From positions 81,195 through 145,194 of the IMG/VR virus record IMGVR_UViG_3300030328_002122: a stretch of 64,000 bases of DNA. One strand, 5' to 3'. The notes beneath the pieces were generated by a model, which did not search any database, was not told the DNA's origin, and was given only the letters and a program-made list of their open reading frames with translations. The DNA comes from a virus. The position numbers and the translations under genes are program-made. Positions 29,319-59,893 of this stretch are shown here, one piece after another (the stretch's first letter is position 1; the number at the start of each line of letters is the position of its first letter).

Positions 29319-29353
29319 TTGACTCCATATGCAAAAAATGTTAATATGATTCG
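29319..29353 (+). promoter_or_regulatory. early sigma70-type promoter with TGATTCG at the start region
   Basis: TTGACT-N17-TAATAT, then TGATTCG at 29347-29353. Confidence 0.75.
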
Positions 29354-29377
29354 TAAACAGAGAGAAAGGTATTAATA

Positions 29378-31881: not shown

Positions 31882-32337
31882 ATGGCATTTAAATTATCAC
31901 AAAGATCACTAGATAAATTAGAAGGCGTTGATGAACGTATGCAAAGAGTTGTCAAGGCTGCAATAGAATTGACTAAAACTGACTTTGGCGTGATTCAAGG
32001 TATGAGAACTGAAGCACAACAAAAAGAACTTGTAGCAAAAGGCGCAAGTCAAACTATGAAAAGTAAACATCTAGAAGGTAAAGCAGTTGACCTCATGGCC
32101 TATGTTGGTTCAAGGGGATCATGGGAACTGAATCTTTATGATGATCTTGCAGATGCAATGAAACAAGCGGCTATCCAAGAAGGTGTACAAGTACGTTGGG
32201 GAGCTGCATGGCAGATTGATGATATGCGAGATTGGGATGGTACAATGGAAGAAGCAATGAACGCATATATTGATTTACGCCGTTCACAAGGCAGACGCCC
32301 ATTTATTGATGGGCCACATTTTGAGTTAATGGATTAA
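31882..32337 (+). CDS. M15-family peptidase endolysin (L-Ala-D-Glu type)
   Basis: AGGAG SD before ATG 31882; LSQRS...L.GV, G.RT...Q, SKHL.G.AVD, WG..W and DGPHFEL motifs. Confidence 0.9.
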   Translation: MAFKLSQRSLDKLEGVDERMQRVVKAAIELTKTDFGVIQGMRTEAQQKELVAKGASQTMKSKHLEGKAVDLMAYVGSRGSWELNLYDDLADAMKQAAIQEGVQVRWGAAWQIDDMRDWDGTMEEAMNAYIDLRRSQGRRPFIDGPHFELMD

Positions 32338-32343
32338 AAACTA

Positions 32344-32372
32344 TTGACATTTATATTATGATATGATAGTCT
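32344..32372 (+). promoter_or_regulatory. sigma70-type promoter of small RNA (no TGATTCG)
   Basis: TTGACA-N17-TAGTCT with extended TG. Confidence 0.65.
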
Positions 32373-32378
32373 AATCCA

Positions 32379-32466
32379 TGTGTCGTGGGATTGTTAGTCC
32401 TCTCTCTCTCACTCTCAAAAATCTAATAACCCACGACAACTGAAAACCCTCTTATGAGGGTTTTTT
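32379..32466 (+). ncRNA. putative hairpin sRNA with CU-repeat loop
   Basis: 16-bp stem 32381-32397/32423-32438 (one bulge); 25-nt loop TCCTCTCTCTCTCACTCTCAAAAAT; terminator aaaaccctc-ttat-gagggtttttt; no ORF. Confidence 0.75.
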
Positions 32467-32486
32467 GTTTTGATAACAAAAAAGTG

Positions 32487-32515
32487 TTGACAAATAAAAC
32501 GAATCAGTATATACT
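32487..32515 (+). promoter_or_regulatory. early promoter with CGAATCA in spacer
   Basis: TTGACA-aataaaaCGAATCAgta-TATACT. Confidence 0.85.
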
Positions 32516-32520
32516 GTAAG

Positions 32521-32720
32521 TATAGTTAACAAAAGAGGGAGATTAAAACCAATGACATGGGTATAACGAGGGTAACAGAGTGGGTTACAAGTTTGGTAAA
32601 CTCAAGGGCCTAATACTCTTAAAGAAGTTACTGCATCAAGGGTGGGTGTCCGAAGCTTGATGACAACTGACAAGGACTCAAGAGGGAACTGAAACAATAG
32701 TCGAGTTCCCTCTTTTTTTT
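32521..32720 (+). ncRNA. putative structured early ncRNA (with 4-codon uORF MTWV)
   Basis: Between strong promoter 32487 and terminator 32680-32720; several helices; no ORF longer than a few codons after the SD. Confidence 0.5.
32680..32720 (+). terminator. Rho-independent terminator
   Basis: aagagggaact...agttccctct followed by T run. Confidence 0.8.
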
Positions 32721-32722
32721 AC

Positions 32723-32751
32723 TTGACAAATAAAACGAATCAGTGTATAAT
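32723..32751 (+). promoter_or_regulatory. early promoter with CGAATCA in spacer
   Basis: TTGACA-aataaaaCGAATCAgtg-TATAAT. Confidence 0.9.
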
Positions 32752-32784
32752 ATAGGTATAGTTAATAAGAGAGAGATGTATAAA

Positions 32785-32967
32785 ATGGATATTGCAGTTT
32801 TACAAGACAACATGATTTTCTTTACTGATTTGTTAAATAAATTAGAAAAGAAGAAAAAGAAAACGCCTGGAAATGGTTTTGCAATAATGAAATGCAAAGA
32901 AAAGATTGCAGAAATTAATCTTATCTTTGATAAAATTAATTATAATTCACAAATTACATACGACTAA
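32785..32967 (+). CDS. early hypothetical protein
   Basis: ATG 32785 after AGAGAGAGA leader. Confidence 0.55.
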   Translation: MDIAVLQDNMIFFTDLLNKLEKKKKKTPGNGFAIMKCKEKIAEINLIFDKINYNSQITYD

Positions 32968-33389
32968 TGTATATAGAATTTTCAAAAACAAATAAGAAAC
33001 AACAACGAATCATTGAGGATGCTCTCTGGTTCGCAAAGGCATATCTATTACCTAAACATAAGATTGATGAGATTCATGTTGAGTCTGTAAAAAAATGGAA
33101 TTATAGAGATGGTGATTGTTATGATACAGATGATAGATCCTATCATATAAGAGTTAGAAAGAATATGTCAGAAGATGTTTTGATTAAAACAATCTTTCAT
33201 GAATTTGCTCATATTAAACAATCAATCAAAAAAGAATTTGGTGATATTTTTGGAATTTTGAGTGATGATGCATCATGGATTTCTTATGATGATAGACCTT
33301 ATGAAATGGATGCTTTTAAATTAGAAAATGAAATGTTCGATAAGTATGCTAAAGATGGAAAATTTAAATTTTCTATAGATGATATCTAG
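32967..33389 (+). CDS. zincin-like metallopeptidase
   Basis: TIFHEFAHIKQ...Y..RPYE.DA motif. Confidence 0.75.
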   Translation: MYIEFSKTNKKQQRIIEDALWFAKAYLLPKHKIDEIHVESVKKWNYRDGDCYDTDDRSYHIRVRKNMSEDVLIKTIFHEFAHIKQSIKKEFGDIFGILSDDASWISYDDRPYEMDAFKLENEMFDKYAKDGKFKFSIDDI

Positions 33390-33400
33390 AGGAGAGAGTT

Positions 33401-40497: not shown

Positions 40498-40726
40498 ATG
40501 AAATCTTTAATTTTTTTATGGGGGTTTCATAATATAATTCCTTTCACTCTTTTTTTATAATATTAATTTTATAATATTAATATAATCACTTATAGATCAA
40601 TTGGTAATGGGTGGCTAGAAAAAACTCCACTTAACCAACAAAACTATTATTTCATAAAATGATGAATATTAATGTCACCACAAAGTCTGGTTTTATAAAT
40701 AGTATTGAGATCTAGTGGGAGAGAGA

Positions 40727-41209
40727 ATGGTAGATCCAGTTACAGCGATTGCAGCCGCAACGACAGCTTTCAATGCGATTAAAAAAGGTTTTCAGTTTGG
40801 ACGAGATGTAGAATCTATGTCTGGAGATCTTGGTCGCTGGATGGGCGCTGTTAGTGATATTGACAAAGCTGACCAATATGCTAAAAAACCACCATTGTTC
40901 AAAAAACTGTTCAATGCTGGATCAGTAGAAGAAGAGGCATTAAACGCATTTATGGCGAAGAAAAAAGCTCAAGATATGAGAGATGAGTTGAAAAACATAA
41001 TTGTTTTTTCAAGAGGCCCTAACGCATGGAATGAACTATTAAAAACTGAAGCAGATATCAGAAAGAAAAGACAACAAGCAATTTATGCACAACAAGAATT
41101 AAGAAGAAAAATTCTTGAAATAGTTGCAGTTGTAGTTATATTGGGAATTGCCACTACTGCAATGGGTTTACTAATTTATGCAGCTGGTGTAAAAAGAGGT
41201 CTTTGGTAG
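40727..41209 (+). CDS. late membrane-anchored hypothetical protein
   Basis: TATAAATA at 40694; MVDPVTAIAAA start; C-terminal TM segment. Confidence 0.65.
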   Translation: MVDPVTAIAAATTAFNAIKKGFQFGRDVESMSGDLGRWMGAVSDIDKADQYAKKPPLFKKLFNAGSVEEEALNAFMAKKKAQDMRDELKNIIVFSRGPNAWNELLKTEADIRKKRQQAIYAQQELRRKILEIVAVVVILGIATTAMGLLIYAAGVKRGLW

Positions 41210-50481: not shown

Positions 50482-50536
50482 TTGACATTTGTTATGAAAA
50501 CAGGTATATTAATAGTATAGAGAGAAAGGTGATTCG
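50482..50536 (+). promoter_or_regulatory. early promoter with downstream TGATTCG
   Basis: TTGACA-N17-TATATT; AGAGAGAAAGG-TGATTCG (50530-50536). Confidence 0.75.
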
Positions 50537-51275: not shown

Positions 51276-51292
51276 TAAATAGAGAGGTAGAA

Positions 51293-58762: not shown

Positions 58763-58792
58763 TAGTTAACAATAGAGAAGAGTGTATATATT

Positions 58793-59019: not shown

Positions 59020-59045
59020 TAAACGAGAGAAAGAGAGAGAAAATA

Positions 59046-59861: not shown

Positions 59862-59893
59862 ATAGGTATAGTTAACAAGAGAGAGAAAATATT

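Follow-up and report, generated by a model that had tools for sequence, protein, structure and literature searches.

In our study, nucleotides 32344–32474 of the window were found to constitute a genuine, conserved and undescribed small-RNA gene of a phage, a conclusion that we hold with a probability of about 95%. The window, that is the whole stretch of 64,000 nucleotides analysed here, forms the right-hand end (64 kb) of an IMG/VR virus record of 145,194 bp. The G+C content of the record is 33%, its + strand is rich in purines, and this strand carries nearly all the genes. The gene contains a promoter, a long hairpin with an open CU-rich loop and an intrinsic terminator. It is conserved among the relatives of the phage, the stem of its hairpin covaries, the loop is retained, and the complementarity of the loop is enriched at the early leaders of the window phage. 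The product may act in trans as an anti-Shine-Dalgarno-like RNA that occludes GA-type ribosome-binding sites (RBSs), the early leaders of the phage being the leading candidates, and we place the chance of this function slightly short of even. The host sigma70 polymerase would transcribe the single-copy gene early, from the promoter of the gene itself, and would give an RNA of ~90 nt, with its 5′ end at the foot of a very stable hairpin and its 3′ end at the intrinsic terminator. The hairpin would present 20–25 unpaired nucleotides, of which the 5′ part, (U/C)CCUCUCUCUC, resembles the anti-Shine-Dalgarno end of the 16S rRNA. The loop would pair in trans with purine-rich RBSs of the GA type (AGAGAGG, GAGAAAGAGG and AGAGAGAGA) and would keep the 30S subunit off them; in the window lineage, the best candidate targets would be the early mRNA leaders of the phage itself. 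As to the role of such repression, early shut-off and superinfection exclusion are pure conjecture.

The closest cultured relative of the window phage was found to be Melnitz, a member of the Kyanoviridae that infects OM43 (Methylophilales), and the RNase H of the two is 72% identical; the cyanophages and the SAR11 phage HTVC008M are farther from the window phage than Melnitz. Phages that infect SAR11, OM43 and other streamlined bacteria of this sort rank among the most abundant marine viruses, and to our knowledge almost nothing is known about the timing of gene expression in phages of SAR11/OM43-type bacteria beyond their early and late promoters. At the gathering threshold of Rfam 15, a tmRNA was the sole match in the 64-kb window, and the CU-loop RNA was matched by no family (C4, alpha-r14/cuckoo, Yfr and IMES included). 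A permissive Rfam scan of nucleotides 32250–32800 gave a best score of 24 bits against a cut-off of 55 bits (E = 0.1), which is at the level of chance, and searches of GenBank phage nucleotide sequences with the locus and with the small RNA returned nothing useful.

The promoter TTGACA-N17-TAGTCT, the 16-bp stem, the 25-nt loop and the terminator, as described in the first-pass annotation, were all found in place (Table 1). The −35 element occupied nucleotides 32344–32349 and the −10 element nucleotides 32367–32372, with a TG at 32364–32365 that makes it an extended −10; the promoter sequence was identical in five close relatives of the window phage. The unconstrained fold of the RNA was exactly the stem with the open CU loop (−35.5 kcal/mol, z = −7.5), and none of 200 shuffled sequences equalled it. 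Apart from the CU tract of the loop, the + strand contained no (CT) tract of at least four repeats anywhere in the 145-kb genome. The CU hairpin differs from a plain terminator, since it has a loop of 25 nt and no U run behind it, and a separate terminator follows at 32442–32474. As is general for trans-acting small RNAs, a promoter of its own and a Rho-independent terminator enclose the short non-coding unit, and a conserved single-stranded seed lies inside a covarying structure.

Table 1. Parts of the small-RNA gene and candidate target sites in the window, with duplex energies for pairing with the loop.
Feature	Position	Strand	Remarks
Sigma70-type promoter of the small RNA	32344–32372	+	TTGACA, 17-nt spacer, TG-n-TAGTCT; read from the sequence
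Hairpin, 5′ arm	32381–32397	+	16 pairs and one bulged A; fold and family covariation
Single-stranded 25-nt loop, UCCUCUCUCUCUCACUCUCAAAAAU	32398–32422	+	CU-repeat seed UCCUCUCUCUCUCACUCUC and A-rich tail
Hairpin, 3′ arm	32423–32438	+	Fold and family covariation
Intrinsic terminator	32442–32474	+	10-bp stem (32442–32465), UUAU loop, then U run
GA-rich RBS, early leader, AGAGAGAAAGG	29359–29369	+	−13.7 kcal/mol; candidate target
GA-rich leader of the neighbouring non-coding unit, AGAGGGAGA	32534–32542	+	9 pairs, one G:U (read by eye); candidate
GA-repeat RBS, early leader, AGAGAGAGA	32768–32776	+	−14.5 kcal/mol
GA-rich RBS, internal gene, AGAGGAGAGAG	33388–33398	+	−19.5 kcal/mol
RBS of a late-promoter gene	40714–40725	+	−26.3 kcal/mol, 12 pairs to the CAC of the loop; best predicted site of the genome
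GA-rich RBS, early leader, AGAGAGAAAGG	50519–50529	+	
GA-rich RBS, early leader, AGAGAGG	51281–51287	+	−12.7 kcal/mol
GA-rich RBS, early leader, AGAGAAGAG	58774–58782	+	−9.6 kcal/mol
GA-rich RBS, best early target, GAGAGAAAGAGAGAGA	59025–59040	+	−22 kcal/mol
GA-repeat RBS, early leader, AGAGAGAGA	59878–59886	+	−14.6 kcal/mol

A second non-coding unit was observed directly downstream, at nucleotides 32487–32712. Its promoter was strong and had CGAATCA as part of the spacer; behind it came a GA-rich leader, an ATG with only 4 codons after it, ~150 nt and a terminator. The fold of the unit (z = −0.5) was no better than that of shuffled sequences, and in the relative L003 the ORF had 2 codons, so that the ORF is not conserved. 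The element TGATTCG/CGAATCA, which contains GANTC, was present at 29347, 51269, 58756, 59013, 32500, 32736 and 59846 of the window, and also at L361:4145-4193 and L371:4392-4442. One promoter class carried it at the start site and another in the spacer; in distant relatives it formed the stem base of the CU hairpin, and in several leaders it stood between the RBS and the ATG. The tmRNA of the phage (nucleotides 36664–37090) was circularly permuted, consisting of two pieces, and of the alphaproteobacterial type, with 116 bits to RF01849 and the tag peptide ANNNFAPVDFAIAA; the host infected by the nearest cultured relative (OM43) is a bacterium of betaproteobacterial type.

Exact-word scans of IMG/VR revealed near-identical copies of the gene in five contigs, in which the differences were confined to the loop tail, the linker, the terminator loop or a change of a stem U:A to U:G. 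More distant relatives were sampled by means of a conserved gene of 158 amino acids, located two genes upstream of the hairpin, which served as an anchor and gave 80 IMG/VR loci; the upstream peptidase gene was a poor anchor, being common to many unrelated phages and syntenic at one locus only. A pattern search with constrained folding found the CU-loop hairpin downstream of the anchor in 58 of the 80 loci, and 37 distinct hairpin sequences were obtained, those of the window and Melnitz included. A covariance model, built from one lineage alone, recovered Melnitz (35 bits), the window (25 bits) and the lineages F3 and F4, and added seven loci, so that 65 of the 80 relatives carried the hairpin at the same position. 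Nine of the 15 remaining loci end too soon after the anchor, and six were without a clear match. Run on ~1 Mb of other sequence, the model returned the four single copies already known and no more; it had no hit in 72 loci of unrelated marine phages, and in HTVC008M it detected no CU-loop hairpin. A search of related genomes for the hairpin, with a test of stem covariation and of a conserved CU loop, had been suggested at the outset, and the 65 positive relatives and the counts given below are its outcome.

In the model-based alignment, 94.7% of the cells were standard pairs against 60.0 ± 1.1% after shuffling, and none of 500 shuffles reached this value, although the fitting of the alignment to the model and the presence of about ten rows from the reverse strand inflate these counts somewhat. 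All 16 stem pairs changed on both sides across the family, and the value fell to 36–60% when the alignment was slid by 1–3 columns. A separate ungapped count of 14 pairs in 14 members gave 99.5% paired against 69 ± 2.4% after shuffling. Nine relatives folded freely to the same shape with an open CU loop (z from −3 to −8.8). The arm count and the covariance model replaced MAFFT with RNAalifold, in which the variable stems lost register and no or few pairs were predicted.

In Melnitz, the copy was located at the syntenic spot (MZ577097 38545-38601), directly after the lysozyme gene. It contained the promoter TTGACT-N17-TATGAT, a 15-bp stem of entirely different sequence and the loop ACCUCUCUCUCGACUUUCUCUCUCA, followed by a terminator. 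The GenBank annotation gives the unit as a hypothetical CDS of 59 amino acids, MelnitzEXVC044M_66 (MZ577097.1 38547-38726), whose start codon is the ATG within the hairpin's 5′ arm and whose frame continues through the terminator; this CDS is most likely a mis-annotated small-RNA gene. The small RNA is not mentioned in the Melnitz paper (PMC9004378). A conserved, single-copy regulatory RNA gene has been missed by annotation and has been called a protein in a cultured representative. A small peptide, encoded by an ORF of 21 codons in the window and by the annotated CDS in Melnitz, nevertheless has to be weighed as the product of the locus, and the window, Melnitz and many relatives all have an ATG at the foot of the 5′ arm. 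The ORF of the window (32378–32443), the frame of which is not conserved, overlaps the hairpin. Insertions or deletions of 1 or 2 nt were found in the loop between close relatives (the window and L296; L332 and L337), and the stem changes were compensatory rather than synonymous; together these rule out a conserved reading frame. The frame also runs through the terminator, the ATG has no RBS before it and lies approximately at the start of transcription, and we give the peptide hardly any credence. Conservation of frame and RBS, as a small protein-coding gene should show among relatives, was not seen.

The core of the loop was conserved while the stems of the family differed in sequence. The invariant part was the 5′ tract (U/C)CCUCUCUCUC; in most members it was followed by an A-rich spacer of 1–5 nt and a second CU tract, and distant members contained one longer CU tract and then an A-rich tail. 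Several loops were near-perfect mirror repeats, for example CTCTCTCTC-A-CTCTCTCTC, and a homopyrimidine mirror repeat inside an inverted repeat could form H-DNA or a cruciform that acts at the DNA level in replication, recombination or packaging. We regard such an element as very improbable, for the promoter and the terminator were precisely placed on one strand in nearly all members, substitutions of the G:U type (as in L295, where a stem U:A changed to U:G) preserve pairing on the RNA strand only, and the mirror symmetry was missing in distant members. The same features bear on a reading in which the RNA is a decoy or platform for a protein. The pyrimidine loop would then bind a single-strand protein that prefers CU, with any base pairing a by-product; the candidates are the ribosomal protein S1, Rho (which recognizes YC dinucleotides), proteins with a KH or cold-shock domain, and a protein of the phage itself. 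The conserved ~18 nt of the loop exceed the 6–8 nt of a typical seed, and a mirror-like pair of CU tracts surrounds the A-rich spacer in many members, both of which fit a protein ligand, as does the absence of co-variation between loop and leaders described below. As no candidate protein was tied to the locus by synteny, and as the second CU tract is missing in L339, L361 and L371, which leaves only the anti-Shine-Dalgarno-like part universal, the decoy appears to us distinctly unlikely.

A promoter of the form TTGAC-N17-TAnnnT ended 1–9 nt before the stem in 34 of the 37 distinct members, by which the transcript is predicted to start at the hairpin. The 17-nt spacer of this promoter was itself palindromic in most relatives (L308, L315, L318, L323, L328, L339 and others), with examples such as AGTAAC-N5-GTTACT and GTACT-N-AGTAC, and the promoter of the window has no palindrome; the palindromic spacer suggests an operator for a dimeric regulator. 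Downstream of the hairpin, members of the family had an intrinsic terminator or, in its place, a tRNA-Gly(UCC) gene, the latter starting 6–7 nt after the stem in four distinct members. In L297:3628-3767, L303:4402-4540 and L327:2828-2964, no terminator was present between the hairpin and the tRNA-Gly(UCC), and the hairpin would be released as the 5′ leader of the tRNA. Relatives of the L314 and L332 types contained a tRNA-like sequence behind the hairpin that was not called by ARAGORN.

The proximity of the tRNA gene in some relatives would also suit a purely cis-acting structural element, namely a hairpin that stabilizes the 5′ end, a signal for processing the tRNA downstream, or a terminator, and so would lineage F3, in which the CU-loop hairpin, with a U run behind it and no promoter of its own, terminates a MazG-like gene. 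A stabilizer or terminator requires the stem alone, but in this family the sequence of the stem is free and the loop is conserved; moreover, the window and Melnitz have nothing between the hairpin and its own terminator. A cis-acting element is improbable in our judgement. The 111-aa neighbour gene of lineage F3 had no cultured homologue. It was also observed that in this lineage (L129:10600-10690, − strand, and L206) a late promoter, TATAAATA, lies ~25 nt after the CU-loop terminator, and the transcript from it would begin AGAGAGAGAA or GGAGAGAGAA, which is complementary to the adjoining CU loop.

Exact-word scans of IMG/VR further showed the same 16–18 nt of the loop in unrelated stems, in contigs of three other marine T4-like lineages (L085/L087; L123/L129/L206; L136/L190/L205), with the same 18-nt loop in L087, L129 and L136. 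Among random metagenome occurrences of the loop motif from all biomes, only ~3 of 126 were located in a hairpin. The persistence of a near-identical loop in very divergent phages (gp45 ~40% identical to that of cultured phages) would be expected if the same trans-acting RNA had its relevant targets among host RNAs and served to shut down or retune the translation of the host during takeover; candidates are the RBSs of host mRNAs present in abundance, or else a small host RNA rich in GA. The early promoter, from which early expression is predicted, agrees with this, and the three loop-bearing lineages without GA-rich early leaders suggest a target outside the phage. On the other hand, the phage's own leaders are demonstrably complementary to the loop, and among 185,579 species genomes the exact 18-mer was found in a hairpin in none of those titled SAR11 or OM43, the one clear hairpin with the loop motif belonging to a Rhodobacter MAG. 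Host targets were considered unlikely. In that MAG (70% G+C; L243:1700-1745), a perfect 13-bp GC stem carries the loop CCUCUCUCUCACUCUCUCU between convergently ending ORFs; it may have arisen by chance, have been captured from a phage or be the host's own version of the RNA.

The occlusion of early leaders by the loop, as we propose it, was examined through the translation-initiation regions (TIRs) of the phage. All the GA-rich leaders listed in the first-pass annotation were found in their places (Table 1), and tracts of at least four GA repeats were rare and located nearly all at RBSs, in Melnitz too. The TIRs next to early promoters showed the highest complementarity to the loop, with a median duplex energy of −11.1 kcal/mol, followed by the internal TIRs (−7.3 kcal/mol) and the TIRs next to late promoters (−5.6 kcal/mol); 50%, 14% and 0% of them, respectively, paired at −12 kcal/mol or better. 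The early and late TIRs differed with p = 0.014 (n = 10 and 16, by our own gene calls), although the early leaders of the genome represent two repeated, paralogous promoter-leader cassettes, so that few independent events stand behind this value. The pairing to a generic 16S tail showed no difference between early and late TIRs. The close relative G004 showed the same contrast as the window; in Melnitz it was weak (p = 0.19), and in the three cyanophage-like lineages with the same loop (F2–F4), whose early leaders were not GA-rich, it was absent. The view of the loop as antisense to early leaders was consequently upheld for the window lineage and G004, where the early class is the most complementary one, but it did not extend to Melnitz or to F2–F4, and the retention of the loop where the contrast is weak or absent points to a target beyond the early leaders of the phage.

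The early leaders had further been expected to occupy the top rank among the predicted sites, and in this the prediction failed. The best site was the RBS of the late-promoter gene, and the 14% of internal TIRs mentioned above equalled the early ones. Many internal genes of the window phage scored well in pairing with the loop; the internal gene at 33388 had no sigma70-type promoter within 160 nt upstream. The genome-wide duplex scan was noisy on the purine-rich coding strand and returned 378 sites at −11 kcal/mol or better. The best site lies in a structure of its own (40696–40735): behind a late promoter, TATAAATA, stands a small hairpin, GATCTA/TAGATC, and the 16-nt loop of this hairpin contains both the RBS and the start codon of a gene encoding a 160-aa membrane-anchored protein. 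The stem of this hairpin was conserved in G004, the extra GUG match of the site was not kept there, and a loop-loop contact between the small RNA and this hairpin is conceivable.

No co-variation was seen between the loops and the leaders. When the loop of each phage was compared with foreign loops on its own leaders, a mean of 49% of the foreign loops bound better, some loops having been shortened by the free fold. The U-run loops of L315 and L328 were an exception, but they would fit the GAGAAAG sites of everybody. Eight of the leaders came from loci without a hairpin by the pattern search, in several of which the covariance model later found one. Across the clade, the early leaders carried GAGAAAGAGG, AGAGAGG or AGAGAGAGA sites. 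The early leaders of HTVC008M, which is without the small RNA, were A-rich with short AGGA sites and not GA-rich, a difference that may be confounded by its different host. It may also be argued that GA-rich leaders are simply strong, unstructured RBSs tuned to the host. Taken as a multi-target occlusion of early RBSs, the original proposal is supported in part: a conserved gene and an open CU loop complementary to GA-rich RBSs speak for it, and the complementarity is not specific to early leaders. In a broader form of the occlusion reading, the RNA would be a switch of translation initiation used throughout a clade of abundant oceanic T4-like phages, which covers the GA-type early RBSs and hands the ribosomes to late mRNAs with a plain AGGAG. 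It would then be an RNA counterpart of T4 RegB, possibly together with the phage-encoded ribosomal protein bS21; we think this rather unlikely.

If ribosome access to early mRNAs is indeed under the control of the RNA, T4-type phages would have in it the first RNA-based temporal switch that we know of, and the GA repeats of the early leaders would be explained. Whatever the target is, the family merits an Rfam entry and a corrected annotation.

Several known systems resemble the CU-loop RNA in part. Under early shut-off, it would be comparable with the RegB endoribonuclease and the RegA repressor of T4, phage functions that inactivate early mRNAs at their RBSs; these are proteins and not RNA, so the analogy is in function only. 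The window phage already encodes a RegA-type translational repressor (PF01818, 155.9 bits) at G000:C1:67776-68132, outside the window, which counts against an occlusion of early leaders by the RNA. A RegB homologue was not detected in the phage by a search that was silent in the control genomes too. T4 also produces the stable RNAs C and D (species 1 and 2), small non-coding RNAs of unknown function that are transcribed with tRNA genes. They recall the relatives in which the CU hairpin lies 6–7 nt upstream of tRNA-Gly, but they are larger, are not known to have a CU loop and are not known to be homologous with the CU-loop RNA. In the 3′UTR of the icaR mRNA of Staphylococcus aureus, a pyrimidine motif at the 3′ end pairs with the Shine-Dalgarno region of the same mRNA. 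The F3 variant, in which the CU-loop hairpin is an mRNA terminator, is similar in arrangement; the icaR motif acts within its own mRNA, whereas the RNA of the window is a free-standing gene.

The closest parallels are small RNAs that block RBSs. The c4 antisense RNA of the phages P1 and P7 (Rfam C4) is a structured phage RNA, the exposed loops of which pair with the RBS region of a phage mRNA and block translation. The CU-loop RNA is likewise a small phage RNA with an exposed loop that is, by prediction, complementary to phage RBS regions. It differs from c4 in giving no C4 match with cmscan; c4 is processed from the operon that it controls and has one target, whereas the CU-loop RNA has a promoter to itself, its CU seed is of low complexity and its possible targets are many. 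The alphaproteobacterial cuckoo/alpha-r14 RNAs (CcsR1-4, NfeR1) and AbcR1/2 occlude many Shine-Dalgarno sequences with pyrimidine loops that resemble the anti-Shine-Dalgarno (CCUCCUCCC and CUCCCA). They are chromosomal and have two or three loops with a different motif, whereas the CU-loop RNA is phage-borne, belongs to no Rfam family and has one loop with CCUCUCUCUC; membership in cuckoo/alpha-r14, which have at least two loops with CCUCCUCCC, was ruled out on this ground. RepG of Helicobacter pylori uses a hairpin loop rich in C and U to pair with a simple purine repeat of an mRNA leader, and slippage varies the length of that repeat. RepG targets the G-repeat of one host leader through its terminator loop, whereas the CU-loop RNA has a CU-repeat loop, its candidate targets are GA-type RBSs of the phage, and the repeat number varies in the loop of the small RNA. 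Small RNAs that block RBSs are a known kind, as c4, cuckoo/AbcR and RepG show; the family described here and its phage setting are new, and so, possibly, is an early shut-off that the phage directs at itself.
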